Shown: positions 1 through 40,497 of the stretch, in pieces | Numbering within the stretch: position 1 is the first letter of the stretch | Layout of the letters: every line of letters starts with the position of its first letter | Assembly: GCA_965204115.1 (NCBI GenBank) | Contig: OZ241963.1 | Span: forward strand, 377,548-441,547 | Direction: 5' to 3' | Length of the DNA stretch: 64,000 nt | From: Minisyncoccota bacterium | GTDB lineage: Bacteria > Patescibacteriota > Minisyncoccia > Phycocordibacterales > JABAAK01 | The notes under the pieces: generated by a model | The model's database searches: none | Seen by the model: only the letters and a program-made list of their open reading frames with translations | Told to the model about the DNA's origin: nothing | Position numbers and translations under genes: made by a program

Positions 1-2180
1 CTGACGGCCTGTTTCACATTTTTACTGATGATACTTCTCGTTCGATCGCTCCTCGGATCCCATTTTGCAATGTCGGAGCCTCCTTTTTCAAAGGCGAACG
101 CGAATGCCATAAATGCCTCCTCCATGATGTTTGCCCACAGTATCTGTATCGGGTGTATCGGCAGTGCTGCGCTTGCCAGTAAGCCGCCTGCCACCAGGAT
201 TGCTTCGCTGAGTGAGGTTGATAACAGGTAGATCAGGATTTTTTTCAGATTTCTTATAATTTTCTTCCCTTCAAGTATGGAGGCGGTGATGGTGGAGAAT
301 GAGTTTTTGAGCAGAATGAGGTCTGATGCCTCTTTTGCCACATCGGTTCCGGACGCTACGGCGATACCGATGGATGCTCGGTGCAGTGACGGCGCGTCGT
401 TGACCCCATCACCCGTCATGGCAACCACCTCTTTTTTATCCAGCAGCACGCGCAACAGGCGTGATTTTTGATTTGGCTCCATGCGCGCGAATACCCGCAC
501 CGTCTGTGCTTTTGTGAACAGGTCTTCATCTGTCATGCCTTCTATATCTTTTCCGGTCAGTGTTTCTTTTGAGTCACCTCCTTTGATGATGCCGGCTTTC
601 TCCGCTATGTGCAGCGCGGTGTGTTGATTGTCGCCGGTTACCATGGTGAGTGTCACATGGGAGTCGCGCATTTGCTGTATTGCATCCGGTACATCGGAGC
701 GGACGGTGTCCTCTAACGATAGGAGTGCCAGGAATACGATGCTTTGCTCTTCCTGCTCCATCGCTTTCTTTCGCTGCTCTGCTGTGTCCTTGATGCTTTC
801 TATATCAACATTCACCTCGGTGGAGCCGATGGCGATGACCCGCCGCCCCTTTCCTGCTTCTTCGGCGAGCATGGTGTGCAGTTTTTCTTTATCCGCGTTA
901 GTTAATGCTGTTACCCTCCCTTGCTTATACACCCGCTCTGATTGCTCCAGCACCACCTCCGGCGCGCCGACGGTATAGTAGCGCTGCTCTCCGCTTTGCT
1001 CCTTTGTGACCGCGGAGGAGCATTTTTTTACGGCGTTGAACGGGATGTAGACGACCCGCTTGTCCCGGCTCGGCACTTCTGTACACACTTCCTCACATGC
1101 CCGCACGAGTGATTGCTCAATGGCTGTCCCGCTGAAGACGGTTTCGTCCGGATCTGCGTCGTCGTCGATCTCGCGGTTGAGCCGTTTGCCGTCTGTCGCT
1201 AAGTATGCGTTGTGTACAATTCCCCGTCCGAATGGTGAGATTGTTTCATCTGAGACCTTTTCCCGCTGGTCAGCGTAGAGTATTTCAGTTAACACCATAT
1301 TGCCGTTAGTGAGGGTGCCGGTTTTATCCATCAGTATCCACGAGGTGCCGCCGAGTGTTTCAGCAGCGAGCATATTTCGTATGAGTCCGTTGTTTTTGAG
1401 TACTGACTGCATGCCCAGAACTAATACCACCGTAATCGCTGCCGGCAAGCCGGAAGGAATACCGGCGATCGCCACGGCGATGGCGGTGATCATCACCTCA
1501 GTAACCGGTATGCCCTGCAGTATCCCTATCCCGATGATCAGTGCTACTGCCAAGAATACCAACCCCATAATCCATCGCGCCAATTTTTTAATCTGCTGCT
1601 GCAGCGGCGTCTCCGCCTCTTCTTCGTACAGTTCTTTTGCGATACCGCCGACTGCGGTGCGCTCGCCGGTATTTACCACAACCCCGCTGCCGGTTCCGGT
1701 GATCACGGTCGTCCCCTTCCATGCCATGTTCACCTGCTCTGCAAGCATTTTTTTGTTGGCGAGTGTTACGACCTCTTTGTTCACCGGTGCCCACTCTCCG
1801 GTTAATATTGCCTCGTTGACTTGCAGATTGTTTTCGCGCAGGATTCGCACATCAGCGGGAATCTTTGACCCCGCCTTAAAAAAGATGATGTCCCCCGGCA
1901 CTAAATTGTTTACCGTAATTTCTATCTGCTTTCCGTCGCGCAGTACCAACGCATATTGCCGATCTATGTGGCGCAGCAAATCAAACGCCCGCGACACCTT
2001 GCCCTCCTGTAGCAGGGCAATTGTCATATTGATCACCAGCACTGCCAGAATGATGTGTGCATCCACCGTATAGCTAATGCTGTAGAGAACGATGCTTGAT
2101 AGCAGGAGGATGAGTACGATCGGGTTTTTAATCTGCGCTATAATTCGTCGCAACCATACGAAACGCTTTTTGCGCTGCAT
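1..2180 (-). CDS. P2-type cation-transporting P-type ATPase (SERCA/PMCA-like), 3' end beyond window
   Basis: Minus-strand translation from ATG (rc of 2178-2180) gives MQRKKRF... with DKTGTLT phosphorylation motif (rc of ~1310-1340), IPSGLPA TM4 motif (P2-type, not the CPC motif of copper P1B pumps), and GDGVNDAPSL hinge; reading frame runs off position 1 with no stop. Confidence 0.85.
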   Translation of the reverse strand, partial: MQRKKRFVWLRRIIAQIKNPIVLILLLSSIVLYSISYTVDAHIILAVLVINMTIALLQEGKVSRAFDLLRHIDRQYALVLRDGKQIEITVNNLVPGDIIFFKAGSKIPADVRILRENNLQVNEAILTGEWAPVNKEVVTLANKKMLAEQVNMAWKGTTVITGTGSGVVVNTGERTAVGGIAKELYEEEAETPLQQQIKKLARWIMGLVFLAVALIIGIGILQGIPVTEVMITAIAVAIAGIPSGLPAAITVVLVLGMQSVLKNNGLIRNMLAAETLGGTSWILMDKTGTLTNGNMVLTEILYADQREKVSDETISPFGRGIVHNAYLATDGKRLNREIDDDADPDETVFSGTAIEQSLVRACEEVCTEVPSRDKRVVYIPFNAVKKCSSAVTKEQSGEQRYYTVGAPEVVLEQSERVYKQGRVTALTNADKEKLHTMLAEEAGKGRRVIAIGSTEVNVDIESIKDTAEQRKKAMEQEEQSIVFLALLSLEDTVRSDVPDAIQQMRDSHVTLTMVTGDNQHTALHIAEKAGIIKGGDSKETLTGKDIEGMTDEDLFTKAQTVRVFARMEPNQKSRLLRVLLDKKEVVAMTGDGVNDAPSLHRASIGIAVASGTDVAKEASDLILLKNSFSTITASILEGKKIIRNLKKILIYLLSTSLSEAILVAGGLLASAALPIHPIQILWANIMEEAFMAFAFAFEKGGSDIAKWDPRSDRTRSIISKNVKQAV

Positions 2181-2427
2181 GGTGTTTTCGCCATATTTTC
2201 CCAGCCGTGTGTCCGCCTCGCGTTGAGTCAGACCTTTCAAAGAAGTCCGCAACACTCCCAACACTTCACTCTCTGAGTGTTCTGAGAAATGTCCGGCCTG
2301 TGAAGAGATATCTTTACCTGTACGCAATACTGGTTCCACTTTTAGTAGTATACAATATGCACTGCTTGATGAAATGCACTGCCTGCCGACACGGTATACT
2401 ATGGGTATGCCAATGACATGGTGTCCT

Positions 2428-2517
2428 GGAGAGGTGGCTGAGTGGTCGAAGGCGCTCCCCTGCTAAGGGAGTAAGGGATTAAAACTCCCTTCGAGGGTTC
2501 GAATCCCTCCCTCTCCG
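2428..2517 (+). tRNA. tRNA-Ser (anticodon GCT), long variable arm
   Basis: Manual cloverleaf: acceptor GGAGAGG/CCTCTCC, anticodon stem CTCCC/GGGAG with loop CTGCTAA, long variable arm, T-arm GAGGGTTCGAATCCCTC. Confidence 0.8.
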
Positions 2518-2523
2518 CAACGA

Positions 2524-2541
2524 GAAAATACTTGTATTTTC
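2524..2541 (+). terminator. Short hairpin GAAAATAC-TT-GTATTTTC immediately after tRNA-Ser
   Basis: Perfect 8-bp inverted repeat with 2-nt loop seen directly in sequence; a near-identical hairpin recurs at 9464-9477. Confidence 0.4.
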
Positions 2542-2545
2542 TTGT

Positions 2546-2640
2546 GGAGAGGGAGCAGTGCAATTGAATTTGCCCTGCGAGTATTCTTAGCGAACGAAGT
2601 GATCTTAGAAACTTGACGCCGAATCCCTCCCTCTCCGCAG
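2546..2640 (+). repeat. Degenerate tRNA-Ser-like element: starts GGAGAGGG and ends with an exact copy of the tRNA-Ser(GCT) 3' end (GAATCCCTCCCTCTCCGCA); inverted-repeat partner at 9484-9560
   Basis: 5' end mimics acceptor 5' strand, last 20 nt identical to tRNA 3' end, but no T-stem 5' strand (GACGCC replaces GAGGGTTC), so not a functional tRNA. 2584-2640 is ~93% identical to rc of 9484-9540. Confidence 0.7.
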
Positions 2641-2678
2641 TTAAAAGATGTTTGTGTGTCTGAAAGGGTGGTTTTTGA

Positions 2679-3167
2679 TCACAGAATCAGCAATATCGCT
2701 GCTGCTGCCATACCAAAATTTTCTGTTACTGAAATAGATGTCAGCGGGACTTTCAGAACAGTGCCGAGGCAGGCGCATTGAATATCTGACTGTTTTCTCA
2801 TAGCGAGTATTACACCGGTGCCGCTGAAAATCATCAGTGCCGCCTCTGTCCACAGTAGCCAATCAGGGTGAAATCCCGCGAGCATGACGAGACCGAACGC
2901 AATCTCAAGAAACGGATACACATATCCGTAATCCCGCCAACGCATTGCCAATATATCGTATGTCGCGTACCCTTCAACGAACCCTTTCAAGTTAATAAGT
3001 TTGAAGCCGCCGAACACAAGAAAGAATCCCACCATAGCATGTAGTAGAAATGTGTCTATGCTGCCATCACTGGTTATACCCGCGGATACCCCAATGAGGG
3101 TGAGTGTAACAATGAGCGGTAGGTAGCTTCTTCCTGTGTGCTGTTGTGTGTGTTCTTTGTGCTTCAT
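2679..3167 (-). CDS. MauE/DoxX-family integral membrane protein
   Basis: 162-aa ORF with about four hydrophobic helices, resembling methylamine-utilisation MauE/DoxX thiol-oxidoreductase-associated membrane proteins; sits directly upstream of the multicopper oxidase on the same strand. Confidence 0.5.
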   Translation of the reverse strand: MKHKEHTQQHTGRSYLPLIVTLTLIGVSAGITSDGSIDTFLLHAMVGFFLVFGGFKLINLKGFVEGYATYDILAMRWRDYGYVYPFLEIAFGLVMLAGFHPDWLLWTEAALMIFSGTGVILAMRKQSDIQCACLGTVLKVPLTSISVTENFGMAAAAILLIL

Positions 3168-3171
3168 AAAA

Positions 3172-4599
3172 TTATTGAACGATGACAGAGGTCATCATAC
3201 CGGCATCGGCATGTTCTGTGATGTGGCAGTGGTTCATCCAGATTCCCCGGTCAAGCGGTATCAGGCCGATGTCTACCGTTTCTTTTGAGCTGACAAGGAC
3301 AGTGTCTCTAAAATACTGCTCGCTGACCGGCTGCCCGTTGCGGGAAATAACCTTGAAAAACTGTCCGTGCAGGTGCATTGGGTGTAAACGAAATGATTTA
3401 TTTGTGAAACGAATTTTATTAAACTCTGCGTGTTTTAGTATCACCGGATCATGTTCCGAAAATACTTTGTCATTCATAGTCCACTCAATATCCCCTGAGG
3501 CGGAGGTTCGCGCGTCAAGGATGTACTCTTCGTCAATAGGCGCTTCTGTAGCATCTGACCAGTCCGGCACCTGCGGGTTTGTAGGGTGTGAAAATGTCGG
3601 TGTTTCCACTGCCTCCCCTTCAGCAGTAATAGTTCCGAGTGTGTTTGTGTACGATGTGAAGAAATCACGCACGACAAACGACTTTCCGTTCGCATCGTTC
3701 GGAATGGTGATATCAACATCTATTCTATTACCCGGGGCGAGTGCAAATCCGTCCGCGTTGAAGATCTCCTTGACATACATGCCATCAACGGCGATGACAT
3801 TCGCCTGCAAACTGCTGAAGTGCGGCTTATATACCCGACCGTTTGAGGCATTGATGAGGCGGAGACGAATTCTCTCCCCGGGTCTGACTGACAGAACCTC
3901 TTCTGTTGACCCATTGACCGTGATGACATTCCCCCACCTGCCGTCGTGTGCAAGGTCGTGTCGTGTGACAAAGTGTGGGCTAATCTGATAGCTTTCCTCA
4001 AGCAGCCAGTCGTCAATAACCCACACAATGTCCTGCGAATACTGTTCAACATATTCATCTTCCACAACAACAGTTCCGTACAACCCCCGCTCCATTTGCT
4101 CACTGGTGTTTTTGTGCGGATGAAACCAAAATGTTCCTGCGTCTTTCGGGGTGAATATATACACGAATGAATTACCCGGCTGTACTGCTTCCTGTGTGAC
4201 ATCCGGCACGCCGTCCATTTCGTTCGGCACACGAATGCCGTGAAAGTGTATGGTGCTCTCCTGCGGCAGATTATTCACGAAAGTAAGGCGTAATGTGTCC
4301 CCTTTTTGTATCCGTATTTCCGGCCCCGGAACCGTGCCGTTGTAACTCCACACTGCCGTTGTATGTCCTTCAAAAATCTCTACTGCACTCTCTTCGGCAA
4401 TTACTGTCACCTCCACGATGGTGCCGCCCTGCTCCGCTGTTTCAGTGTATGCCCCTGCAAATTCCTCGGCAAAAGATGTCTTCAGTGAGATGCTGCTTGT
4501 GATGTCAATGCTTCCTGATAGCAGGCATGCAAGGAAAATGAGGGCTGCAACGCACACCACACCAACTGTTGTTTTGTTTTTGGATAGCGCACGGTTCAT
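3172..4599 (-). CDS. Multicopper oxidase (CueO/laccase-like), secreted
   Basis: 475 aa with N-terminal signal/TM region and the four copper-ligand motifs HFHGIRVP, WFHPHKN, HPMHLHG and HCHITEHADAGMM. Confidence 0.85.
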   Translation of the reverse strand: MNRALSKNKTTVGVVCVAALIFLACLLSGSIDITSSISLKTSFAEEFAGAYTETAEQGGTIVEVTVIAEESAVEIFEGHTTAVWSYNGTVPGPEIRIQKGDTLRLTFVNNLPQESTIHFHGIRVPNEMDGVPDVTQEAVQPGNSFVYIFTPKDAGTFWFHPHKNTSEQMERGLYGTVVVEDEYVEQYSQDIVWVIDDWLLEESYQISPHFVTRHDLAHDGRWGNVITVNGSTEEVLSVRPGERIRLRLINASNGRVYKPHFSSLQANVIAVDGMYVKEIFNADGFALAPGNRIDVDITIPNDANGKSFVVRDFFTSYTNTLGTITAEGEAVETPTFSHPTNPQVPDWSDATEAPIDEEYILDARTSASGDIEWTMNDKVFSEHDPVILKHAEFNKIRFTNKSFRLHPMHLHGQFFKVISRNGQPVSEQYFRDTVLVSSKETVDIGLIPLDRGIWMNHCHITEHADAGMMTSVIVQ

Positions 4600-4684
4600 T
4601 GTATTATTAGTATATATGGTAACAGAATGCGGGGTTCTCTTGCGGCACCTTATGTAATAGCGGAGTAGACGCTGCTGGGCATAT

Positions 4685-4705
4685 CCCCCCTCCTCCTCTC
4701 CGCAA
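4685..4705 (+). repeat. Third copy of the tRNA-Ser 3'-end core (CCTCTCCGCAA) in the oxidase/spondin divergent intergenic region
   Basis: 11-12 nt identical to the last nucleotides of tRNA-Ser(GCT), preceded by a C/T-rich tract; chance expectation for a specific 11-mer in this window is ~0.03. Confidence 0.35.
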
Positions 4706-4759
4706 TTTTACACAGTCACAAATAAAAACAACACTGCGTGGCGTATAGTAAGTGTAAAT

Positions 4760-5488
4760 ATGGGCGTAGGGAAAAAACATGTACTCATCATAGTGATAGT
4801 CGGGGCTATCATTGTGTCTATTGTCATGTCGTCAAACTCGTCGGTAACAGAAAACCCGGTGCCGCAAGAAGATGCAGTTATAGATATCACACCGGAAAAT
4901 GAAACAGTGCCGATTGCGACAGAGCAAAATGAAAGGGTGTATACCGTTCGCATGCGCTCATCATGGAGTAAAGATTCGCATCCGAATTTTCATCCCGACG
5001 GATCGCACCTGTCTCCCATGATTGCATGGTCACACACATTTGAAGATACACTATTCAAATCAGGAGCTGTTGCCAGTGAAGGGATGGAGATAATGGCGGA
5101 AACCGGAGCGCCGACAGTAATCACAGAAGAAATAAAGGCACTGATTGCGAAAGGAAGTATTCTTGACTATGGTGTCGGATCGGTGTTTTTCACACCCGGA
5201 GAAGAAGAAGTGCAGGTGAGGGTTTCACCAAGCACACCGTATATAACGGTGGTAAGTATGATTGCACCAAGCCCCGACTGGTTTGTTTCCGCGCGTAATG
5301 TAAAACTCTATGACCAAGGGAAGTGGGTGGAACAAACGAGCATCCCGGCGCCGCTCTACGATGCAGGAACGGACGACGGAGAGGAGTTTACCTCGGCAGA
5401 CAAAGATACACAGCCGAAACAGCCGATTGGGAGATTTGCAGGAGCGCCTTCTGCCTCCATCGTCATTTTTGAATTTATAAGTAATTAA
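4760..5488 (+). CDS. Secreted Spondin_N-domain protein
   Basis: Signal/TM N-terminus, then motifs typical of bacterial spondin-N homologs (SSWSKDSHPNFHPDGSH, MIAPSPDWFVSARN, DAGTDDGEEF). Confidence 0.6.
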   Translation: MGVGKKHVLIIVIVGAIIVSIVMSSNSSVTENPVPQEDAVIDITPENETVPIATEQNERVYTVRMRSSWSKDSHPNFHPDGSHLSPMIAWSHTFEDTLFKSGAVASEGMEIMAETGAPTVITEEIKALIAKGSILDYGVGSVFFTPGEEEVQVRVSPSTPYITVVSMIAPSPDWFVSARNVKLYDQGKWVEQTSIPAPLYDAGTDDGEEFTSADKDTQPKQPIGRFAGAPSASIVIFEFISN

Positions 5489-5499
5489 CTTTCTTCTTT

Positions 5500-5973
5500 A
5501 TGAAAAAAACTGTGGCCATTGTTATTTTAGGAATCATCATCGTTGCGGGCATCGGCTATGCGGCGAGTGTTGGTTCACCTGAAAATGATACAGCGCTTGA
5601 AATATACCCTGACGATGTGACCACCGCCCCGACTGCAGATACCTCACCAAACTCAACAGGCGGCGAATATGTGAACTACAGTGACTCTCTTGTGCAGCAG
5701 ATGCTTGCTGACGGGAAGCGGGTTGTTTTATTCTTCCATGCGGCGTGGTGTCCGACCTGTAATTTGGCAGACAGAAGAATACAAGAAGCGGCACACCAGA
5801 TACCATCTGATGTTGCCATCTTTAGGGTTGATTACGATCGCGAAAAAGCGTTAGTGGATGCGTATGGTGTTTTGTATCAACACACATTCGTGCAGCTTAC
5901 CGAAGGTGGGTCTCTGGTAACCAAGTTCCAAGGCAGCAGCACACTGCCGGCAATACTTGCCAATATACAATAG
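5500..5973 (+). CDS. Membrane-anchored thioredoxin-like protein (TlpA/ResA-like), WCPTC active site
   Basis: 157 aa, N-terminal TM helix, FFHAAWCPTC thioredoxin motif. Confidence 0.8.
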   Translation: MKKTVAIVILGIIIVAGIGYAASVGSPENDTALEIYPDDVTTAPTADTSPNSTGGEYVNYSDSLVQQMLADGKRVVLFFHAAWCPTCNLADRRIQEAAHQIPSDVAIFRVDYDREKALVDAYGVLYQHTFVQLTEGGSLVTKFQGSSTLPAILANIQ

Positions 5974-5978
5974 GAATT

Positions 5979-6725
5979 ATGTTTGGCCTTCTTTTCATTT
6001 CTTTTATTGCAGGCATCTTAACAGTATTTGTTCCCTGTATTTTCCCGCTTATCCCTGTTGTTATTGGTGGCTCTGTTTCCGGTACCGAGCGGAATTCATA
6101 TACTATTATCGGCTCGTTGGTTGTTGCCATTGTCCTTTTTACGGTTGTTATCAAAACTTCTTCCGATGCGCTTGGCGTGCCGACTGAATTTTGGACCTAT
6201 GTTTCCGGTGTGCTGGTTGCCCTGGTCGGGCTTACTTTTGTATTCCCCTCTATGTGGTCTAAGGTTCCCTTAGTGTCTCGGCTTTACAAAAACAGTAACT
6301 CTCTTCTTTCCCGAGGACACCGAAAGTCCGGTACCGTCGGTGATATCATCATCGGCTCTGCGCTGGCACCCGTATTCACCTCCTGCAGCCCCACATACCT
6401 CCTCATACTTGCTGTTATCTTACCGAACAGCTTACTACAGGGAGGTGCTTATTTGCTCGCTTACGCGCTTGGTGTCGGCACCATCCTCTTATTTATATCA
6501 CTCATCGGACAAAGTATTATTCAAAAATTCGGCTGGCTGTCAGACGGTAATAACACATTCAGAAAAATCATCGGCGTCATCATCCTTATCGTCGGCATTA
6601 TGCTCGTTACCGGATATGACAAGGTTTTTGCGGCCTGGATTTTAGACATCGGTTTCATAGACTTCATCGGTGCTGAAGAAACCCTCTTAGAATCTGTAAT
6701 GGACAAACAGGTTACTTCGCAATAG
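5979..6725 (+). CDS. ccdA: CcdA/DsbD-family thiol-disulfide transporter
   Basis: 248 aa polytopic membrane protein with the two conserved Cys-containing segments VFVPCIFPLIPV and FTSCSPTYLL. Confidence 0.8.
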   Translation: MFGLLFISFIAGILTVFVPCIFPLIPVVIGGSVSGTERNSYTIIGSLVVAIVLFTVVIKTSSDALGVPTEFWTYVSGVLVALVGLTFVFPSMWSKVPLVSRLYKNSNSLLSRGHRKSGTVGDIIIGSALAPVFTSCSPTYLLILAVILPNSLLQGGAYLLAYALGVGTILLFISLIGQSIIQKFGWLSDGNNTFRKIIGVIILIVGIMLVTGYDKVFAAWILDIGFIDFIGAEETLLESVMDKQVTSQ

Positions 6726-6736
6726 TGGTGAGAATA

Positions 6737-8185
6737 CTACATCAAAAGAAAGTACTCAAGCGGTATTTTAATAGTGTTATTTTCGGAATCCAGTGATACC
6801 GTGGAGGTGTTATCTACAACAACACTGAACGCTGGATTTGCCCGTTTTGCCGTTTGCTTTACCTGTCTCAAATTTTTACCGCCGGCACTAACCTCAATAA
6901 CGATATTCTTCCCTCCAAAATTAACTACGAAATCAGCACCACCCTCCTTGGCGTCGTAAGTCAGGGTGACATCTGGGGTTTCAGGAGACACATTTACACG
7001 GTGTAGCGTAAGTCCAACTATATCTTCTAACAATTTTCCGTACATTACTTCGGGAGATAGAGTGCTCCCTCCTTTTTTAAAAATTGCCGAGCGAAATACC
7101 GGAGCGATAAACAGAAACTTTGACCTTTGTCGCACTTGGGCGTTGTGTGATGCTGTGTACGCCGGAATGTGCTGTAACATTCCTGCACCCACAAAAGCGT
7201 CAAATAAATTTTTCGTTGTGTGTCGACTGAGATTCAGTGCGTTCTTCCCGAGTGACTCATAACTAATCTGATCTGCAGATGCGAGTAAATATAGTACCGT
7301 TGGTGCTTTCTTAATGGTGCCTATCTTAAAGTTGGATGTTTGTGTTATATCTTCCCCAATGATGCGGTCAAGTATCCTGTTGCAGGAGTTAAACGCTTCT
7401 TCAGGTTGTTTTAGAAGCATGGATGGCAGTGAGCCCATTTTTATATATTTTTTTACTTCGCTTGGGTCAATGGAAGCGTAGTATTTTTTTATTTCACTTT
7501 CCAGAGAAGTGATTTTGTGATACACCTCATCTGCATCCACACTTTCAAAAAATGCTGTGCGTATTTGTTTTTGTATGCCTGCATGCAGTGGCTTTTTGTT
7601 CTTTAGTGTCATATACTCAGTGAAACTGAGTGGCAACATTTTTACAGACTCTTCCCTGCGCACTATATCGTTGTTCTCACTTAAATGCAGCGCGGAGGAT
7701 CCGGTTACATATATAAAAACTTTTCGCTTGGCACGATCATACACATCCTTGAGTGTGATGCCCCATTTTTTGTCATACTGTGCTTCGTCTATGAAGAGAA
7801 TCAATGGTTTTTCACGATTTTCAAAAGCACTGCCGGATATCTCCTCGTACACACGCAGCACATCGAACAGAGACACATTAAATAGCTCCGTGATTCTGTC
7901 CACTGATAAAAACAAAGTGTCGACCTCTTTGCGTGTCATTTCAGAAAGAATCTGCATAAGCATGGTTGTTTTTCCGACACCGCGCAATCCGGTTACGATG
8001 CACCAAGAGTATGTCATATTACCGCCTAAAAAATCGTCTGCGTACGCTTTTACCTGGGTGAAAATGTCTCGCTTTGGGTATTGATTGCCGGAAGGGTCCG
8101 TTGTGTACTGCTCCGCTACAGCACTTGTGTTTGCCATCTGTTCCCGCAAAAAAACCTCTATTTTTTCCCTTGTTTCTATATTCAT
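6737..8185 (-). CDS. AAA+ ATPase (AAA_14/DUF4143 family)
   Basis: Walker A GLRGVGKTT, Walker B ILFIDEAQY. The ORF track starts at 8260, but those first 25 codons are encoded by the palindromic repeat cluster; likely true start is MNIETREK at 8185. Confidence 0.75.
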   Translation of the reverse strand: MNIETREKIEVFLREQMANTSAVAEQYTTDPSGNQYPKRDIFTQVKAYADDFLGGNMTYSWCIVTGLRGVGKTTMLMQILSEMTRKEVDTLFLSVDRITELFNVSLFDVLRVYEEISGSAFENREKPLILFIDEAQYDKKWGITLKDVYDRAKRKVFIYVTGSSALHLSENNDIVRREESVKMLPLSFTEYMTLKNKKPLHAGIQKQIRTAFFESVDADEVYHKITSLESEIKKYYASIDPSEVKKYIKMGSLPSMLLKQPEEAFNSCNRILDRIIGEDITQTSNFKIGTIKKAPTVLYLLASADQISYESLGKNALNLSRHTTKNLFDAFVGAGMLQHIPAYTASHNAQVRQRSKFLFIAPVFRSAIFKKGGSTLSPEVMYGKLLEDIVGLTLHRVNVSPETPDVTLTYDAKEGGADFVVNFGGKNIVIEVSAGGKNLRQVKQTAKRANPAFSVVVDNTSTVSLDSENNTIKIPLEYFLLM

Positions 8186-8345
8186 ACTTCTATTGAAATA
8201 TACAAGGAACAGGTATTCCTTGTATAGTGTAGTATACAAGGAATTAGTATTTCTTGTCAAGTGTAGTATACAAGGAATGAAATTTGGAAAAATATGCTTT
8301 TAAATAAGGGTATTTTTGTGAATTCCTTGTATAGTGGTTTTATAA
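8186..8345. repeat. Cluster of 5-6 copies of 11-mer TATACAAGGAA in both orientations (e.g. TTCCTTGTATAGTGTAGTATACAAGGAA)
   Basis: Seen at ~8209, 8225, 8242, 8275, 8321, 8341; lies between the bcp stop and the ATPase start, so likely operator or decayed miniature repeat. Confidence 0.6.
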
Positions 8346-8801
8346 GGAACCTATGAGGGCAAGTACTTGCTGTGCATGCCCTTGCGCTTTGACCGTTTTC
8401 CAATGCTTGAGGATGGTGCCGCTTTCATCTACCAATACCGTACTGCGGACGATGCCCATTGATTTTTTGCCGAAATTGTTCTTTTCCCGCCATGCGCCGT
8501 ACGCCTCAATCATTTCGCCATTTTCATCACTGAGCAAGTCAATACCAAACCCATGCTTATCACAAAACTTCTTGTGTGAGGTGACAGAATCTTTCGAAAT
8601 ACCGAATACAACGGTGTTTTGTTTTTCAAATTCCTTACGCAACGCCGAAAACTCCAATCCCTCAGTTGTACACCCCGGCGTGTCGTCTTTCGGATAGAAG
8701 TACAGTACTACCCGCTTCCCTGCCAGATCAGCAAGTGAAACCATCTCACCGTCCTGGTTTTCCAACGAAAATGCCGGCGCCTTTTGCCCTTCCATACTCA
8801 T
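8340..8801 (-). CDS. bcp: Peroxiredoxin Bcp (thiol peroxidase)
   Basis: Core aligns to Bcp (FSLENQDGEMVSL..VVLYFYPKDDTPGCTTE). The ORF track extends to 8942, but that 47-aa extension (twice TRNATSVS) is encoded by REP-like palindromes; start placed at MSMEGQ. Confidence 0.8.
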   Translation of the reverse strand: MSMEGQKAPAFSLENQDGEMVSLADLAGKRVVLYFYPKDDTPGCTTEGLEFSALRKEFEKQNTVVFGISKDSVTSHKKFCDKHGFGIDLLSDENGEMIEAYGAWREKNNFGKKSMGIVRSTVLVDESGTILKHWKTVKAQGHAQQVLALIGSL

Positions 8802-8822
8802 TACTGACAGTGTAGCACAGGA

Positions 8823-8853
8823 GCAACGCGACACGGATGTCGCGTTGCGAGTA
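8823..8853. repeat. REP-like 31-bp palindromic element GCAACGCGACACGGATGTCGCGTTGCGAGTA (copy A)
   Basis: Stem CAACGCGACA / TGTCGCGTTG with 4-nt loop. Partial second copy at 8884-8907, exact reverse-complement copy at 12673-12703. Confidence 0.75.
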
Positions 8854-8883
8854 AGATGCGGCTGCCAAGTCGCACAATAAAAT

Positions 8884-8907
8884 GACACGGATGTCGCGTT
8901 GCGAGTA
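8884..8907. repeat. REP-like palindromic element, partial copy B
   Basis: GACACGGATGTCGCGTTGCGAGTA, identical to the 3' 24 nt of copy A. Confidence 0.65.
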
Positions 8908-8983
8908 GGCGCAAATTGAATTTTGCGCCGCGAGGCAGGCATATTTCCCGTGGCGACCTCTCTCTTGTGTTACAATCCTAATA

Positions 8984-9055
8984 CTCCTCGTAGTTCAACG
9001 GATAGAACGCGGGCTTGCGGAGCCCGTAATGCAGGTTCGATTCCTGCCGAGGAGG
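8984..9055 (+). tRNA. tRNA-Arg (anticodon GCG by manual fold)
   Basis: Acceptor CTCCTCG/CGAGGAG, D-arm GTTC-AACGGATA-GAAC, anticodon stem CGGGC/GCCCG with loop TTGCGGA, T-arm GCAGG-TTCGATT-CCTGC. Confidence 0.6.
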
Positions 9056-9074
9056 CTTGGGAGTAATACAGTGT

Positions 9075-9455
9075 ATGTTTAAATACTATATAACAGGTAT
9101 AAAAAAATCCATGGATTTTGACGGGAGGGCGAGAAGGAGAGAGTTTTGGGTTTTTGCGCTTATGCACGCAGTTATCTCTTCTGCAATATTAGTCGCATTC
9201 ATATCTATCGTTCCTACGATCCCGTACGGGGGTACAGAGTTGATAGTATTAACATGGTACTTTCTTACAGCCATTCCATTGTTGGCAGCTGTGTGCCGGA
9301 GATTGCACGATACAGGGAAAAGTGGATGGTGGATTTTTATACAGTTTGTTCCGCTTGTCGGACCTATTTGGCATCTCATAAATTTGTTATCAGATAGTGA
9401 GCCAGGAGGCAATCAGTATGGTCCGAATCCGAAACAGCGATCTGTGTCGACATAG
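9075..9455 (+). CDS. DUF805 (YhaH/YhaI-like) inner-membrane protein
   Basis: DFDGRARRREFW, RRLHDTGKSGWW and C-terminal GGNQYGPNP match the DUF805 family pattern; start moved to MFKYY to clear the tRNA. Confidence 0.75.
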   Translation: MFKYYITGIKKSMDFDGRARRREFWVFALMHAVISSAILVAFISIVPTIPYGGTELIVLTWYFLTAIPLLAAVCRRLHDTGKSGWWIFIQFVPLVGPIWHLINLLSDSEPGGNQYGPNPKQRSVST

Positions 9456-9460
9456 AAAAT

Positions 9461-9560
9461 AACAAATACAAGTATTTTCTACTTGCGGAGGGGGAGGGAT
9501 TCGGCGTCGAGTTTCTAAGCTCACTTCGTTCGCTAAGAACTCCCTGCCCGGGCTCGGCGA
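9461..9560 (-). repeat. Inverted-repeat partner of 2524-2640: hairpin AAATAC-AA-GTATTT plus copy of the tRNA-Ser(CGA) 3' end (GAATCCCTCCCCCTCCGCA) plus shared arm
   Basis: rc of 9484-9540 aligns to 2584-2640 (TTCTTAGCGAACGAAGTGA-CTTAGAAACT-GACGCCGAATCCCTCC-CTCCGCA). The copy carries the CGA-isoacceptor-specific CCCCC variant. Confidence 0.7.
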
Positions 9561-9684
9561 CAATTTTATTCCGCTTCGCTCCATAAAATCGTAGACCGCC
9601 TGCGCCTTTCGAATCCTCCGCAACGCGAAATACTATTCGCGCTGCTCCCCTCCTCGTAATAAAAATGTAAACATTTTTTAACTG

Positions 9685-9775
9685 CGGAGGGGGAGGGATT
9701 CGAACCCTCGATACGAGTGTATACTCGTATACCGGTTTTCGAAACCGGCGCTTTCAACCACTCAGCCACCCCTCC
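9685..9775 (-). tRNA. tRNA-Ser (anticodon CGA)
   Basis: rc gives GGAGGGGTGGCTGAGTGGTTGAAAGCG..; anticodon stem CCGGT/ACCGG with loop TTCGAAA, long variable arm, T-arm GAGGGTTCGAATCCCTC. Confidence 0.75.
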
Positions 9776-9803: not shown

Positions 9804-10883
9804 TTAGTCGTTGGCACCCTCTTCCGCCTCTCCTGCGGCGATTTTTTCCAGCGACTGCACCACTGCCTCATTGGTGAGGAGTGAGGTGATGTAGGTGTGG
9901 ATCTGGTCGTCGGTCATATCAGTTTGCTTTTTCTTGAAGCGTTCCACCTCTCTTTCTACTTCATCTATGCCGGCGCGGATATTCTCCTGTGTGCTGATGG
10001 TGTTCATAATGAGCTGTATTTTTGCCCGTTTTCGCGCGTCTTCCCGCAACTGTTCCCACAGCTTCCCTTCTGACATTTTTTGTGCTTTGAGGTAATCCTC
10101 TATAGTGGTGTTGAAATGCTCTGCCTGTGCCTTCATCTCCTCGTATGCTCGCTTACTCTCCTCTTCAATCATTATTTCCGGCAGGGTAATGGTGGTTTGC
10201 TCTGCGATGGTGTCCAGTAGTTTTTGGCGGAATAGTGCACGCGCCTGCAATGCTTTTTCCTGTGTTATAGATTCCTGTATTCCTTTTTTGAAACTTTCTA
10301 CATCTTTGTGCTGTTGTGATACTTCCTGCACATATTCGTCAGTGAGCTCCGGCAAATCACTATCATCTTTCGGAATATCTTTTTCCGGATGCGCTTTTTT
10401 GTATAACCCCCTTCGCACATCCAAGAGTACTTGCTGCATTTCCTCATCGGTCGCCTCTTTTGGCTCTTCCGGCTTTTCCATCTTTTGCAAGAGTGGCTTG
10501 TAGTCCGGCAGTGTTACTTTCGGCATCATGTAAAACTCAATTTGAAACGACACATCATGCTTGTCAGCGATATTGGTTATCTGCATCTGCGGCTGCCCCA
10601 GTGGCACCACACCCTCCCCCGCCACGATGTCGGCAAAATGTTTTGTTATCACTTCCTGTGCGCTTTGTCGCCAAATCTCTAACGGGCCGATTTCTCGCTC
10701 CACGACCTCCGGCGGCGCGTTCCCCTCTCTGAATCCGTCTATTTTTTTCTCTGCCCCGATTCTCTGCAGCACCTCATCACGCACCGCCGCTATCATGTCT
10801 TTCGGCACCACGCCGTCAATCTTGGCGTGTGCTTTTTCATCGTCCTTGTGTATTTGTATTGAAAATTGTTCTTGTGTAGTCAT
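9804..10883 (-). CDS. tig: Trigger factor (N-terminal ribosome-binding and C-terminal chaperone domains; no PPIase domain)
   Basis: KIDGFREGNAPPEVVE matches the TF signature GFRxGxxP; the C-terminal region LPELTDEYVQE.. resembles the TF C-domain. At 359 aa it is too short to hold an FKBP domain. Confidence 0.65.
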   Translation of the reverse strand: MTTQEQFSIQIHKDDEKAHAKIDGVVPKDMIAAVRDEVLQRIGAEKKIDGFREGNAPPEVVEREIGPLEIWRQSAQEVITKHFADIVAGEGVVPLGQPQMQITNIADKHDVSFQIEFYMMPKVTLPDYKPLLQKMEKPEEPKEATDEEMQQVLLDVRRGLYKKAHPEKDIPKDDSDLPELTDEYVQEVSQQHKDVESFKKGIQESITQEKALQARALFRQKLLDTIAEQTTITLPEIMIEEESKRAYEEMKAQAEHFNTTIEDYLKAQKMSEGKLWEQLREDARKRAKIQLIMNTISTQENIRAGIDEVEREVERFKKKQTDMTDDQIHTYITSLLTNEAVVQSLEKIAAGEAEEGAND

Positions 10884-12531: not shown

Positions 12532-13854
12532 CTATTCCCCAATCTCTTCAGTGTTTTTTTCGGCCTCATCTTTGACATCTTCTGCTTCTGTGGTTTTGCT
12601 TTCTGGTGCTGCTTCTTCTGTTTCAGTTGGTTTGTCTTCTTCTGTTGTTTTTTCGTCTTCGCTGCTTTCTTCTACTCGCAACGCGACATCCGTGTCGCGT
12701 TGCTCCTCCCTTTTAAATATTGTTATGTCCCCTTCTACGGTTGATTGTGCTACTTCTGTGCCGCCCGGGTCGGTGATGACAACTTCCCAGTCGGTCAGCT
12801 TTGCCGCGAGTTTGAGGTTCTGCCCGCCGCGGCCGATGGCAACCGGTATCTGATCATCGCTTGTTTTTACCAGTGCTCGCTTGCTCTCCTCGTTGATTTC
12901 CACTCCCATCACTTCTGCCGGCAACAATGCTTCGCCGATAAACTCTGAGATATCGCTCGGCCAGTTGATGATGTCAATCTGCTCGCCGTTCAGTTCACTC
13001 TTCACGGTCATCACCCGCACCCCCCGCTGCCCGACAAATGCTCCCACCGGATCCACCGACGGACTTTTGCTCTCAACCGCGATTTTGGTGCGGACACCCG
13101 GATCGCGTGCGATTGCTTTTATCTCAAGCGTTCCTTCGGTCAGTTCCGGCACTTCCGTTTCAAATAGCCGCACGACAAATTTTTCATCGGCTCGGGATAG
13201 TCGCACAAAGCCGCCGCTTCGCCGCTCGGTGTTTATTGACTGCACAAAGGCGCGGATGGTATCCCCTTGATTAAATCGTTCACCGCGTATCTGCTCTGAG
13301 AAAGGTAGTATTGCTACTGTTCTCCCGAGATCAACAAATACATTTCCCCGCTCCACGCGCTGCACCTGTCCGTGTACCAGTTTTCCTTCTTTTCCTTGAA
13401 ACTCTTCCACTGCCGCGTCTCGCTCCGCCTCGTGTATCTTTTGGGTTATCGCCTGTCGTGCTGATTGCGCTGCAATTCTGCCGAAATCGGTTTTCGACTC
13501 CAGCGGGAAGAGAATTTCTTCTCCCTGCTTCACCCCCTGCCGCACTAGCTGCGCATCGTCCACCATCATGTGTCGCTCAGGATTGAATCGCACCCGCTCT
13601 TCATCCTCTTCTTTTGGTGCCTCGTCTTCCGGGAGGATGTGTGCCTCATCTAATACCTGCTTCACCTGAAAAAAAGTTGACTCCCCCGTGCTTTGATTGA
13701 TTCTGCAGCGGACAATCTGATCACTCTTGCCATATTCCCGCTTATACGCCGTCGCAAACGCCGTTTCTAGCGCCTCCCATAGTGCATCCTCCGGCAAGTG
13801 CCGATCCTCTGCTATTTGTTGTACTACCGCTTTTATTTCTTTAATATCAAACAT
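12532..13854 (-). CDS. nusA: Transcription termination/antitermination factor NusA, with acidic C-terminal tail containing an in-frame REP-like element
   Basis: N-terminal domain, S1 and KH-like regions are recognisable. The C-terminal ~80 aa are E/D/K/T-rich, and codons for EEQRDTDVALRVEE are the 31-bp palindrome at 12673-12703. Confidence 0.85.
   Translation of the reverse strand: MFDIKEIKAVVQQIAEDRHLPEDALWEALETAFATAYKREYGKSDQIVRCRINQSTGESTFFQVKQVLDEAHILPEDEAPKEEDEERVRFNPERHMMVDDAQLVRQGVKQGEEILFPLESKTDFGRIAAQSARQAITQKIHEAERDAAVEEFQGKEGKLVHGQVQRVERGNVFVDLGRTVAILPFSEQIRGERFNQGDTIRAFVQSINTERRSGGFVRLSRADEKFVVRLFETEVPELTEGTLEIKAIARDPGVRTKIAVESKSPSVDPVGAFVGQRGVRVMTVKSELNGEQIDIINWPSDISEFIGEALLPAEVMGVEINEESKRALVKTSDDQIPVAIGRGGQNLKLAAKLTDWEVVITDPGGTEVAQSTVEGDITIFKREEQRDTDVALRVEESSEDEKTTEEDKPTETEEAAPESKTTEAEDVKDEAEKNTEEIGE
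12673..12703. repeat. REP-like 31-bp palindromic element, copy C (exact reverse complement of 8823-8853)
   Basis: TACTCGCAACGCGACATCCGTGTCGCGTTGC; 31/31 identity to rc of copy A. Confidence 0.8.
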
Positions 13855-14130: not shown

Positions 14131-14201
14131 GCGAGTATAGTTTAGTGGTAGAACGCGGCCTTGCCATGGCTGAGACGGGAGTTCGATTCTCCCTACTCGC
14201 A
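14131..14201 (+). tRNA. tRNA-Gly (anticodon GCC)
   Basis: Acceptor GCGAGTA/TACTCGC, anticodon loop TTGCCAT, T-arm GGGAGTTCGATTCTCCC. Confidence 0.8.
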
Positions 14202-14246
14202 CTGACATCATACAGATGTGACGCTTTTCTTTTTTCGCAGTGAGTT

Positions 14247-14972
14247 CTAACGGTGCTTTTTCAGGTGCGTCGTAAAAAATGCAAGTGCATCTTCCAGTAT
14301 CTCTCTTTTCATAGGTTTAAAAAACTCTTTTTTGTGAATTGGCTGATTTACTTTTCTATCCCCTTCTAAAAGGGTGATGATATGCAGTGTGTAATCGAAG
14401 TAAGACATGAGAGTGTGGGTGCTGGCACTGCCGAATTTTTTCTCTTTGAAAATATCGGAGTAATCTCCTCCGAGCTGGCTTTCAAATTGAAACAATACAA
14501 CTTCTGCGTCAGGAGACATTTCTTTAATAAAGGATCCGTCAATTAGCACTCGTTTTATCATCGCATTTTCTGCGTATGATTTACATTCAATGGCCATAAC
14601 GAGATTCTCTCTGATGTATACTGGCACATCTATCTTAAACTTGTAGGAATAATCTTTTATATTTTTCTTTATGTAACCAGCTACCTCTTTATCCTGCACT
14701 CTTTTCAGGTAGTCCTTTTTCAGCGGAACAGTCACAGCGCCCTTGTTAGTTCTTAAATCAGAAATGTCACCAGTTAGGTTAAACCACGCTCTTTTGACAA
14801 GTCCGCGTGCAAACGCTTCAACAAAAGAACCTTTGATGGACCGCTCTATCCCGCCGGATGCCCGCTGCCTGTCCTGCACTTTAAAATCTACATCCTCAAC
14901 TAATGAATTATATGCCTCCAGCAACTCATCAATTGTTGGGATGTCGGGAATATTTGGAGCATCTTGTGACAT
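14247..14972 (-). CDS. Putative Type II restriction endonuclease (PD-(D/E)xK-like)
   Basis: 241 aa, AT-rich, immediately downstream of and co-oriented with a DNA methyltransferase. Candidate catalytic motif IDVPVY..ENLVMAIECKSY (D..E-x-K). Confidence 0.5.
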   Translation of the reverse strand: MSQDAPNIPDIPTIDELLEAYNSLVEDVDFKVQDRQRASGGIERSIKGSFVEAFARGLVKRAWFNLTGDISDLRTNKGAVTVPLKKDYLKRVQDKEVAGYIKKNIKDYSYKFKIDVPVYIRENLVMAIECKSYAENAMIKRVLIDGSFIKEMSPDAEVVLFQFESQLGGDYSDIFKEKKFGSASTHTLMSYFDYTLHIITLLEGDRKVNQPIHKKEFFKPMKREILEDALAFFTTHLKKHR

Positions 14973-14983
14973 ATACTTCTGTA

Positions 14984-16225
14984 TTAGAGCAGTCTACCAC
15001 TTAATCGTCTTTTTGCAACATCACAATATTCTTTTGATATATCAATTCCCAAATATCTTCTGTCAAGTGTGTGGGCAACACTAGTGGTCGTCCCAACGCC
15101 ATTAAAAACATCTAATATTACATCGTTTTTAAAACTAAACAACTTTAGACATCGTATCACAAGGTTTTCAGGAAACATTGCAGGATGGCCGTATTCTTTC
15201 ATTTTTCTTTCTGGTGCGATAGACCACTTAGCGACAACCCATTTTTTAAACTCCTCTGCTGATATATCAATGTTTTCTGCATCTCCTGCATGCTTTAAGT
15301 CACCCTTGCAAAAAACCTCAATGAATTCCCATGTGTACTTGAGGTATGGGCTGCTCGGACTCTTCCAACTACCCCACGCTGTATACTTGCAATTATAGTT
15401 GTTTTTTTCCCACAATATCTCCCCTTTCCAAAGCATGCCGATATCCAACAGGTACTTGGAAATAAGATGATGTGTCGGGATGTAATCTGAAAACAATGGT
15501 TGCACATTCACAATCATTCGCCCTCCGTGTTTTAACACTCGCCTTGTTTCATTTAGTATAGCGAAAAGTTGCGTAAAGTACTCATCCCATCTTTTATCAT
15601 CTTCACCACTTTCATATTCAAGACCAAAGTTGTATGGTGGCGATGTTACCATCACATCAATGCAATTGTCAGGTAATTTTTTGAGCACCTCCAAACTGTC
15701 ACCGCATACTATCGCGTTTTCATATTCAGATGGCAAGATGTTTGTTTGTGTGTCGTTTTTATTATTTTTTTTCTTTACGCTGGCAGTTCTCTTCTCAGAT
15801 TTTTCTTTTCTGTTCTTTACCTTTCGCTCCTTATTAAAATTAATATATACTCTTTTCCCGCTTCGCAATCCATATGAACCAATGCTGTCGACCGCCTCAA
15901 CGAAATCGTCAATTAAATCTACCATTACCAGATCTTCACCTTCACTTGCTTTTATCTCTAATGCTCGTATTTTGAACTTTTCAAAGTTAAGATTATTAAC
16001 AAAAAGCTTTACTTCCCTTGCTCCCTTTGGCTCAAAGTAGATATGGTTATCAAATTCGTTGAAAAACGAGCGCATGACATCTTGGCTTTTCTTGTCAAAT
16101 TGATGCCTGGTTCTCAATGCAACCTCTTTATATTCCATATGTTTAGTATATCTCACAAAATTTATTGTCAATAATGATATCCCGAATTGATGAATGATTG
16201 CAAAATGCGCAGTAAATCTTATCAA
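14984..16225 (-). CDS. Beta-class DNA methyltransferase (SPPY motif, probably N4-cytosine or N6-adenine) with N-terminal extra domain
   Basis: Motif IV TSPPY precedes the C-terminal AdoMet motif I VILDVFNGVGTT (beta-class order). The N-terminal ~160 aa is unassigned; an internal start at MEYKEV (~16138) is possible. Confidence 0.8.
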   Translation of the reverse strand: MIRFTAHFAIIHQFGISLLTINFVRYTKHMEYKEVALRTRHQFDKKSQDVMRSFFNEFDNHIYFEPKGAREVKLFVNNLNFEKFKIRALEIKASEGEDLVMVDLIDDFVEAVDSIGSYGLRSGKRVYINFNKERKVKNRKEKSEKRTASVKKKNNKNDTQTNILPSEYENAIVCGDSLEVLKKLPDNCIDVMVTSPPYNFGLEYESGEDDKRWDEYFTQLFAILNETRRVLKHGGRMIVNVQPLFSDYIPTHHLISKYLLDIGMLWKGEILWEKNNYNCKYTAWGSWKSPSSPYLKYTWEFIEVFCKGDLKHAGDAENIDISAEEFKKWVVAKWSIAPERKMKEYGHPAMFPENLVIRCLKLFSFKNDVILDVFNGVGTTTSVAHTLDRRYLGIDISKEYCDVAKRRLSGRLL

Positions 16226-16283
16226 GCAGCATAGACAGCAAATTGATTATATTCCGATTCTTTGTTACAGTTACATTCTCACA

Positions 16284-18281: not shown

Positions 18282-18401
18282 ACTGTTTATTTTAACATTA
18301 AATATCCTAATTTTTAATTATCTTAGATGTATTTTGGGCGCCCGCTTGATTCGGATATGTCGTATGTCGTAAAAGAGTAATCTGCGAGTGAGTGATGTTG
18401 G

Positions 18402-40390: not shown

Positions 40391-40497
40391 TTGTAAAAAA
40401 TCATAATTTGTATTATTGTCAAAGTTATGGTTTAATATTTTTTTAAGTTGCTTGATTCTGTGTTCCGTCTTCCGGTGCTTATATACTGTGTATAACT

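Follow-up and report, generated by a model that had tools for sequence, protein, structure and literature searches.

Introduction

The closest described counterparts of the element reported here are the tRNA attachment (att) sites of integrative elements and the integrase-less, CIME-type derivatives of such elements, in which the part of a tRNA gene from the T-loop to the 3′ end is duplicated with an element between the copies, and in which tandem accretion, empty sites and replaced tRNA 3′ ends are seen. We have analysed a 64,000-nt stretch from a tiny-genome Kaiserbacteria/CPR organism, a Minisyncoccota bacterium (contig OZ241963.1 of assembly GCA_965204115.1, positions 377,548 to 441,547; hereafter the window), where two tRNA-Ser genes face each other across about 7 kb and each is followed by a short element of a kind that we call the tRNA-tail unit. 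The unit shares these traits with tRNA att sites, the duplicated segment here including the terminator. It differs from them in being gene-less and only ~175 nt long, in starting with the complement of the tRNA end, and in having an interior that is covarying, strand-specific and conserved across host tRNAs, and no integrase was found nearby.

Several other systems resemble the unit in part. Integron attC sites and the CTX-phage attP likewise combine variable sequence with a conserved hairpin-like structure, terminal inverted repeats, strand-specific folding and a stem that can recreate a duplex target, but the unit comes with no IntI-like gene and no alternation of genes and sites, is anchored to a tRNA instead of attI or dif, and is to a large extent conserved in sequence too. 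In mascRNA (the 3′ end of MALAT1), the t-elements of plant mitochondria and the tRNA-like domain of tmRNA there is, as in the unit, an acceptor-like helix with a discriminator base that would recruit processing enzymes. Unlike these, the unit has no cloverleaf or T-arm, its T-loop bases being paired in a helix termed P2 below; its closing helix copies one particular neighbouring tRNA; and units are tandem and dispensable, with processing that is predicted only. Functional RNAs made from tRNA 3′ trailers, such as 3′ETS-leuZ of E. coli, likewise follow a tRNA immediately on its 3′ side, as part of one transcription unit, but they are short, unstructured, single-copy and fixed, with no mimicry of the tRNA end. 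Miniature inverted-repeat transposable elements (MITEs), REP/BIME repeats and Rickettsia palindromic elements are, like the unit, small, gene-less, hairpin-forming and variable in copy number, whereas full units are found only behind tRNAs and are flanked by a long duplication of the tRNA end and trailing hairpin, not by a short target-site duplication.

A preliminary description of this locus, made from the sequence alone, had read the two elements as scars of serial integration around a block of copper-stress and redox genes. We find that the units have a conserved, covarying and strand-specific fold, that their ends copy the host tRNA, and that their copy number changes quickly. Rather than decayed scars of integration, they appear to be a structured RNA or a miniature mobile element that has not been described before.

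Results

Copies of the tRNA-Ser 3′ end bracket an element behind each of two facing genes

The gene for tRNA-Ser(GCT) occupies 2428-2518 on the plus strand and that for tRNA-Ser(CGA) 9684-9775 on the minus strand, both being recognised by ARAGORN and Rfam. The last 20 nt of tRNA-Ser, CGAATCCCTCCC[T/C]CTCCGCA, are here termed X, and end the two genes as X1 (2500-2519, T variant) and X4 (9683-9702, C variant). X occurs exactly four times in the window, against 0.02 occurrences expected from shuffles. The two further copies are X2 (2620-2639, plus strand, T variant), which lies 120 nt beyond X1 and closes the element el1, and X3 (9484-9503, minus strand, C variant), which lies 199 nt beyond X4 and closes the element el2. 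Direct repeats of X bracket each element, X1 and X2 around el1 and X4 and X3 around el2. The facing tRNA-Ser pair with a hairpin and an element behind each gene, as set out in the preliminary description, is confirmed by ARAGORN, Rfam and the count of X; it was also correct that each element opens with GGAG(A/G)GGGAGCAG, the complement of its own 3′ end, and closes with the last 20 nt of the tRNA. That each element carries the X variant of its own isoacceptor holds in the window, but not as a rule, as variants are mixed in three related loci (L006, L017 and L012).

The inner arms of the two elements form a 72-nt inverted repeat with 88% identity (2584-2655 versus 9468-9539). Within it, the 57 nt that had been noticed beforehand (2584-2640 versus 9484-9540) are indeed inverted repeats, at ~95% identity, and a 30-nt core of the arm has two occurrences against none expected, only at these two places in the window. 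A third copy of the core had been placed at 4695-4705. The 11 exact bases are present there, in a pyrimidine run at the end of a candidate X relic (4683-4705, plus strand; ATCCCCCCTCCTCCTCTCCGCAA) that is oriented like X1 and X2 and is identical to X at 18/18 positions once two short insertions are removed, but the covariance model described below misses the site, which may be a relic of X or a chance match. A search for relic copies of X at up to three errors was too noisy for use.

The two elements differ in completeness. El2 (9484-9657, minus strand) is a full unit of 174 nt, matched by the covariance model at 187 bits (E 1e-40). Its closing helix, P1, pairs GGAGGGGAG with CTCCCCCTCC, and is followed by the hairpin H1, the helix P2 (GGAGGATTCG with CGAATCC-TCC), the hairpin H2, the short helix P3 (GGC with GCC), the hairpin H3 and X3. 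El1 (2543-2639, plus strand), previously given as a 95-nt element, is matched at 38.6 bits (E 1e-6) and runs from the 5′ complement of X (GGAGAGGGAG) through H1, CGAGTA, H3 and ACTTGACGC to X2; it lacks the 5′ strand of P2, the whole of H2 and the 5′ strand of P3. El1 is a deletion derivative, while el2 is an intact unit, and these are the only covariance model matches in the window. Folding energies compared with shuffles give z scores of -5.0 and -4.1 for the two elements.

The unit is a family found behind tRNA genes

The comparison set included loci around the trigger factor gene tig in related genomes, numbered here with the prefix L, and two further loci from a metagenome scan. R1, a covariance model with six seed sequences, recovers 16 full units of ~155-190 nt in the window and nine other loci, at E values from 1e-15 to 1e-46. 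All full units stand directly 3′ of a tRNA gene, on the same strand and 25-35 nt away. The host tRNAs are, in Kaiserbacteria relatives, tRNA-Ser with anticodons GCT, CGA and TGA, and further one divergent tRNA-Ser and one tRNA-Met. When one genome per GTDB species was scanned with a pattern of the unit body, the sole match was a complete metagenome-assembled genome, OY764332.1 (tig 83% identical), in which 5/5 matches lie behind the tRNA-Ser genes for GCT, CGA and TGA, two of these genes carrying two tandem units. A pattern match at L013 was by chance, inside a coding sequence.

Copy number ranges from 0 to 2 between close relatives, with additional fragments, and arrays run head-to-tail. We see one copy behind tRNA-Ser(CGA) and two in tandem behind tRNA-Ser(GCT) in L006, and one or two full copies behind each of these genes in L012. 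In L007 there is one copy plus a fragment behind CGA and a 3′-truncated copy behind GCT; in L009, one copy plus a fragment behind CGA and a 5′ fragment behind GCT. One copy stands behind GCT in both L008 and L017, where the CGA gene is followed by no more than a 5′ fragment, and L016 holds an aberrant copy. Empty sites, meaning a tRNA-Ser(CGA) with no unit, are found in the two closest relatives, L001 (tig 96% identical) and L003 (86%), and in L010 and L018.

Two of the units, both from the metagenome scan, have unusual hosts. That of L014 follows a very different tRNA-Ser(CGA), and its ends match that tRNA. In L015 a tRNA-Met(CAT) is followed by a terminator, the unit and then a second copy of the terminator; this unit has the conserved 3′ body GAGCCCGGGCAGGAAGTTCTTAACGAGCGGAGCGAGTTTAGAAACTTGGCGCCGAATCC, while its 3′ end, CGAATCCGGCCCCCGCAA, is that of the tRNA-Met and its 5′ start, GTTGCGGGG, is the complement. 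The presence of the same body with Met- or Ser-matched ends indicates that the body is conserved and that both ends are tailored to the host tRNA. A finer case of such end variation, A/T versus G/C, is seen in the window, L008 and L012.

Positions 2270-2319 of L011 hold a mini-unit that consists of the complement of X, H1 and the 3′ half of X (GGAGGGGGAGT-hairpin-ACTCCCCCTCC), the whole body being deleted.

A covarying, strand-specific fold

Read in the tRNA sense, a full unit begins with antiX, which is the complement of the acceptor and T-stem 3′ strand, followed by H1 and by a P2 strand that pairs with the T-loop bases CGAATCC. Next come the variable H2, the conserved stretch GAGCCCGGGCAGGAAG, the conserved H3 (AAGTTCTTAGC...GCTTAGAAACTT), ACTTGACGC, X and a copy of the trailing hairpin, T. 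The fold is a rod closed by P1, in which antiX pairs with the 3′ half of X and which repeats the sequence of the acceptor stem and of the T-stem 3′ strand of the tRNA. P2 pairs GGGATTCG with CGAATCCC and makes use of the T-loop bases, and H2 is closed by GGC/GCC, which is P3; the 3′ strand GCC-GAATCC-C-TCCCYCTCC is paired over its entire length. When units were folded one at a time, 8/8 gave this same architecture, at -75 to -85 kcal/mol, and RNAalifold applied to a plain MAFFT alignment returned the same fold with compensatory change in 15/40 pairs. Both of these results are free of model-fit bias.

In the alignment to the covariance model, 96.1% of cells pair and 34/61 pairs change on both sides, with a covariation score of 0.353 compared to 0.165 in shuffled alignments (0/500 reach 0.353), although these figures lean towards structure, given an alignment fitted to the model and related sequences. 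Sliding the partners by 1-3 columns lowers the covariation to 0.03-0.09 and leaves only 31-46% of cells paired. Ten covarying pairs lie in H1, and H3 shows switches of the types G-C/A-U, C-G/U-A and U-A/G-C. In some genomes H2 is swapped for a different hairpin, and the loop of H3 measures 12 nt in most units and 24 nt in L007; the stems of H1, H2 and H3 stay paired despite these changes of loop length or outright replacement. Such kept pairing with variable spacing favours a folded single strand over a double-stranded, protein-binding palindrome. The H3 stem is 100% conserved across distant lineages. Outside P1 there are 28 G-U cells versus 7 A-C cells, which indicates that the folded strand is the tRNA-sense strand.

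DNA-level recombination at tRNA 3′ ends

Each unit is flanked by direct repeats of X and T, the tRNA end and its trailing hairpin being duplicated around each element. In the window, the hairpin T behind tRNA-Ser(GCT) (2520-2545, plus strand; type A, A/T-rich) resembles that behind el2 (9456-9483, minus strand; type A′), the two post-X sequences being 93% identical over 40 nt. Conversely, the sequence after X2 (2640-2662, plus strand; type B, a degenerate hairpin) resembles the A/T-rich hairpin behind tRNA-Ser(CGA) (9658-9682, minus strand; type B′), with 94% identity over 34 nt. The trailing hairpins are therefore crossed between the two loci. A recent 6.8-kb inversion through the 72-nt repeat would explain this in one step, but such a simple inversion is rejected because the orientation of tRNA-Arg, Bcp, AAA_14 and DUF805 relative to tig is the same in the window, L001 and L006-9. 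The likely cause is that the two loci exchanged units or X-T segments.

Further signs of exchange are seen in the relatives. Units are nearly identical across loci within one genome (L012, L011 and L006), and the X variant at the unit end does not match the preceding tRNA at the CGA gene of L006 and the GCT gene of L017. At L012 4976-5067 (minus strand), the tRNA-Ser(CGA) of OY764332.1 itself bears the T-variant 3′ end of the GCT isoacceptor, so that its acceptor stem has a G5-U68 wobble. The sites that hold a 5′ fragment alone are as expected if recombination between X-T repeats removed full units that stood ahead of an older, truncated one.

The empty site of L001 is informative in another way. 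At 3767-9659 and 9660-9700 of this closest relative, el2 is replaced by genes for a 1659-aa A2M/MG2 protein with a Hint domain and for Memo, with the 3′ end of tRNA-Ser(CGA) on one side of the pair and, on the other, a degenerate 12-nt copy of it that amounts to half of X (CCCGCTCCACAA). After this degenerate X come the same hairpin, matching type A′ of the window, and the same DUF805 flank. This sharing implies that the second X-T copy predates the split of the two genomes, and L001 leads us to infer that the tRNA 3′ flank is a site where genes come and go. The earlier suggestion of recombination or integration scars thus holds in so far as there is DNA-level recombination at tRNA-Ser 3′ ends, but not as attL/attR decay.

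A second type of small repeat was observed in the window. An insertion of ~110 nt at 8819-8930 (plus strand), between the start of Bcp and tRNA-Arg(GCG), consists of GGAGCA-hairpin-TGCGAGTA(G) modules built like the 5′ part of el1; L001, L006 and L007 have no such insertion at that site. At 12673-12706 (minus strand) there is an identical 34-mer, in-frame in the variable, acidic C-terminal tail of NusA. The module looks like a miniature mobile repeat able to land in coding sequence; Rickettsia palindromic elements sit in-frame in host genes in the same manner as this related 34-nt hairpin module in the nusA tail.

Comparison with described families

Rfam scans of the window and four loci, at gathering thresholds and by E value, match only the tRNAs, with nothing on the units at E up to 5, and the sub-threshold matches (sX4, plastid psbI-rps4 and permuted tmRNA) all fall on the tRNA-Ser genes themselves. 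No match was obtained when the el2 body was compared by BLAST (blastn) with phage and plasmid records, or when two body patterns were run against IMG/VR viral contigs. Pfam shows no recombinase domain among the block genes or the called genes of 12 related loci, and a tblastn search of the window and ~280 kb of related loci found nothing below E = 4, a weak negative given the approximate XerD query. Nothing comparable to the unit was found in the literature. The units match no Rfam family and form one that we could not assign to any described family.

Several specific identities were tried and rejected. The units are not tRNAs or tRNA pseudogenes: they have no D or anticodon arms, ARAGORN and RF00005 miss them, and their body is common to Ser- and Met-linked copies. 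Group I introns are common in tRNA genes of Patescibacteria and would interrupt a complete tRNA in its anticodon loop (PMC13011429); the unit has neither D nor anticodon arm and gives no RF00028 match. An integron cassette array was rejected since the tRNAs are flanked by tig and the ATPase gene and no unit lies between the variable-region genes. For a MITE, the inverted ends (antiX and X) are present, but the flanking duplication is the ~45-nt X-T and 16/16 full copies are behind tRNAs. Finally, the 5′ end of the unit complements the genomic ...GCAA, not ...GCCA, and hence does not match a mature tRNA end, as a primer-binding site would.

Gene content between the tRNA-Ser genes

The list of enclosed genes in the preliminary description is confirmed. 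Nearest to tRNA-Ser(GCT), at 2679-6725, are genes for a MauE-like protein (minus strand), a multicopper oxidase (minus), Spondin_N (plus), thioredoxin (plus) and CcdA/DsbD_TM (plus). These five accessory genes are missing from the same interval of all relatives examined, MauE being found elsewhere in L003-5. The remainder, at 6737-9455, is a conserved core of an AAA_14/DUF4143 ATPase (minus), Bcp peroxiredoxin (minus), tRNA-Arg(GCG) (8984-9056, plus) and DUF805 (9057-9455, plus), whose order and orientation relative to tig match L001 and L006-9.

Beyond tRNA-Ser(CGA) lies tig itself (9804-10883, minus strand), with homologues from 96% down to 50% identity, one of them labelled Candidatus Kaiserbacteria; the exact protein encoded in the window has no database record. 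Relatives share the conserved backbone nusA - ppa - x - x - tig - tRNA-Ser(CGA). In L006-L009, L012 and L017, whose tig is 78-83% identical, the far end of a 4-9 kb interval is marked by a convergent tRNA-Ser(GCT) and, behind it, a P-type ATPase gene. This interval always contains tRNA-Arg(GCG) and Bcp in constant orientation, while its remaining content is hypervariable and includes restriction-modification genes, proteases, A2M and others. The window also has a P-type cation ATPase gene (1-2300, minus strand), which extends past the left edge and for that reason was missed by the list of open reading frames (ORFs). At this edge the list holds only shadow ORFs on the plus strand (e.g. 1300-2073).

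The shared layout of ATPase, tRNA-Ser, tRNA-Arg, Bcp and tig implies that the facing tRNA-Ser pair is ancestral. We conclude that the convergent pair, tRNA-Arg and Bcp are ancestral and that the accessory genes are specific to the window. The GC content of the block, 0.42-0.51, is similar to that of its flanks, so the GC comparison that had been proposed as a check shows no anomaly. The idea of an island bounded by att sites fails too, in that the bounding X copies are inverted, not direct, and that layout and orientation are common to relatives. We regard the copper and redox genes as ordinary accessory cargo of a hypervariable interval that has long lain between two tRNA-Ser genes.

Other features of the window

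Directly after tRNA-Gly(GCC) (14131-14202), the region 14200-18300 has a low GC content of 0.31-0.36, against 0.45-0.53 around it, and encodes an N6/N4 DNA methylase and an HATPase_c_3 protein; it is clearly foreign by GC, probably a restriction or defence islet that was acquired. At 19455-31907 (minus strand), one ORF of 4150 aa consists largely of ~26 tandem repeats of 294 nt (98 aa) with 60-90% identity. Between a Kelch/Peptidase_S11 gene and a UPF0102 gene, shortly before two tRNA-Pro genes, lies a 175-nt tandem repeat of ~2.5 copies (39885-40400) that is rich in the palindrome TGTTTCACGTGAAACA; the long gene-free stretch beside UPF0102 is also seen in relatives. GC skew changes sign between ~18 and 40 kb, with no dnaA adjacent. 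At 53516-53589 (plus strand) there is a tRNA-Ile with the anticodon TAT, which is uncommon in bacteria.

Discussion

The interpretation towards which we lean, tentatively, is that tRNA-tail units are an undescribed family of small, non-coding, structured elements behind tRNA genes, acting both as recombining DNA and as read-through RNA. Recombination between the direct X-T repeats would add, remove and homogenise units, and units would pass between tRNA genes that share X, swapping tRNA 3′ ends and trailing hairpins; this exchange would explain the crossed hairpins in the window. At the RNA level, the unit would be transcribed by read-through from the tRNA gene and then excised by tRNA-processing enzymes, with RNase P acting at the 5′ side and trimming at the 3′ side, as suggested by a closing helix that resembles a tRNA minihelix with a discriminator G.

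Several observations weigh against this interpretation. Hairpin T separates each unit from its tRNA and would restrict read-through; that of L015 makes a good terminator, GC-rich and with a U run. No promoter-like site was seen next to the units. P2 engages the T-loop bases in pairing, so that no cloverleaf is formed, and recognition by RNase P is presumed. Close relatives do without the unit, which makes it dispensable. The covariation counts come from 14 distinct sequences, many of them from related genomes, in a model-fitted alignment, and the set includes a single Met-linked and a single distant Ser-linked unit. Folded single-stranded DNA also tolerates G-T pairs, and the strand asymmetry is thus equally compatible with RNA and with single-stranded DNA.

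The last point bears directly on the main rival, which we regard as possible though unlikely. On this view the unit is an integrative element, non-autonomous, that attaches through a folded single strand, as integron attC and the CTX-phage attP do. Folded as single-stranded DNA, the antiX/X helix would recreate the duplex of the tRNA 3′ end, and a recombinase encoded elsewhere in the genome would insert a circle into the part of a tRNA gene that runs from the T-loop to the 3′ end, giving rise to X-T duplications and tandem arrays. Much of the evidence above suits this proposal. The duplicated segment runs from the T-loop to the gene end and includes the terminator, a layout that Williams is said to have described in 2002 as classic for tRNA att sites. 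Tandem arrays, empty sites, the swapped tRNA 3′ end of L012 and the switch of both L015 unit ends to tRNA-Met are all in keeping with it, and crossed trailing hairpins are expected if the circle brings its own T. The unit combines terminal inverted repeats with a strand-specific structure of variable sequence, L001 has genes between X and a degenerate half of X, and mobility is demonstrable for small hairpin modules akin to the 5′ part of the unit. On the other hand, neither Pfam nor the weak tblastn search revealed a tyrosine recombinase in the 64-kb window or ~280 kb of related loci, and the scans of viral contigs and the phage and plasmid BLAST were empty. The conserved unpaired stretches and the 100% conserved H3 stem exceed the conservation usual for att sites, and there is no cassette-like alternation of genes and units inside the variable region.

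A more far-reaching version of the RNA interpretation, which we consider doubtful, is that the units are a new class of tRNA-mimicking RNA. RNase P and 3′ processing would free such an RNA from the tRNA precursor, since its closing helix reproduces exactly the acceptor and T stems of the host, discriminator base included. It would then receive CCA and perhaps an amino acid, or serve as a decoy for factors that act on the acceptor end of that tRNA, such as toxins, nucleases or phage factors. Its gene would spread by re-tailoring both ends to a new host tRNA.

The proposal made in the preliminary description, in which attL/attR-type scars record serial integration of larger elements with the integrase since lost and the 7-kb block as a remnant, now appears improbable. 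Direct repeats of the tRNA 3′ end agree with it, as do the hypervariable genes between the tRNAs (restriction-modification systems in relatives included), the position of A2M and Memo between X and a degenerate X in L001, and the possible X relic at 4683-4705, between the multicopper oxidase and Spondin_N genes. But scars would decay, whereas the unit body is conserved and covarying across genomes and host tRNAs; the X copies that bound the block are inverted rather than direct; the convergent tRNA pair is ancestral, with tRNA-Arg and Bcp between its genes in fixed orientation; the GC content of the block is that of its flanks; and no integrase was found in the window or, within the limits of a weak negative, the ~280 kb of related loci. 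That description had itself set a conserved structured element against the idea of decayed scars; a conserved family with covarying structure is what we find, and the scar proposal is largely refuted on its own terms.

It is similarly improbable that the units are simply cis-acting RNA or DNA structures, reinforced terminators or insulators, which would keep the strong transcription of the tRNA genes from entering the converging genes of the variable region and yield no separate RNA product. Units are always co-oriented with a tRNA and directly 3′ of it, their folds are very stable (at the -75 to -85 kcal/mol given above), and in the window both face converging genes, with MauE (2679-3167, minus strand) running towards tRNA-Ser(GCT) and el1 and DUF805 (plus strand) towards tRNA-Ser(CGA) and el2. 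Yet close relatives have none, a scan of the units for consensus terminators was negative, and a terminator has no need of tRNA-copying ends, conserved unpaired motifs or tandem copies. Decay of tandem tRNA-Ser gene duplicates into pseudogenes is scarcely credible: the unit does share tRNA positions 1-7 and about 56-76 with its neighbour, and the covariance model gives weak matches of 13-18 bits on the tRNAs themselves, but the D and anticodon arms are absent, ARAGORN and the Rfam tRNA model pass the units over, and the occurrence of the same body behind tRNA-Met (L015) and a very different tRNA-Ser (L014) excludes independent decay and refutes this reading.

The object of interest at this locus is the tRNA-tail unit rather than the copper and redox block. 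If the unit acts as an RNA, the little-studied Candidate Phyla Radiation (CPR)/Patescibacteria would have yielded a new family of structured RNAs, and a natural case of tRNA-processing signals being used to release another RNA; we know of no bacterial non-coding RNA described as having termini that co-evolve with a neighbouring tRNA. If it is instead a DNA element, it would hitch-hike on tRNA genes, defined by its structure and carrying no gene, and would show how tRNA 3′ ends become recombination hot spots in genomes with no obvious integrase. In that case it would also explain the hypervariable gene content between the tRNA-Ser genes, the copper and redox genes of this bacterium included.

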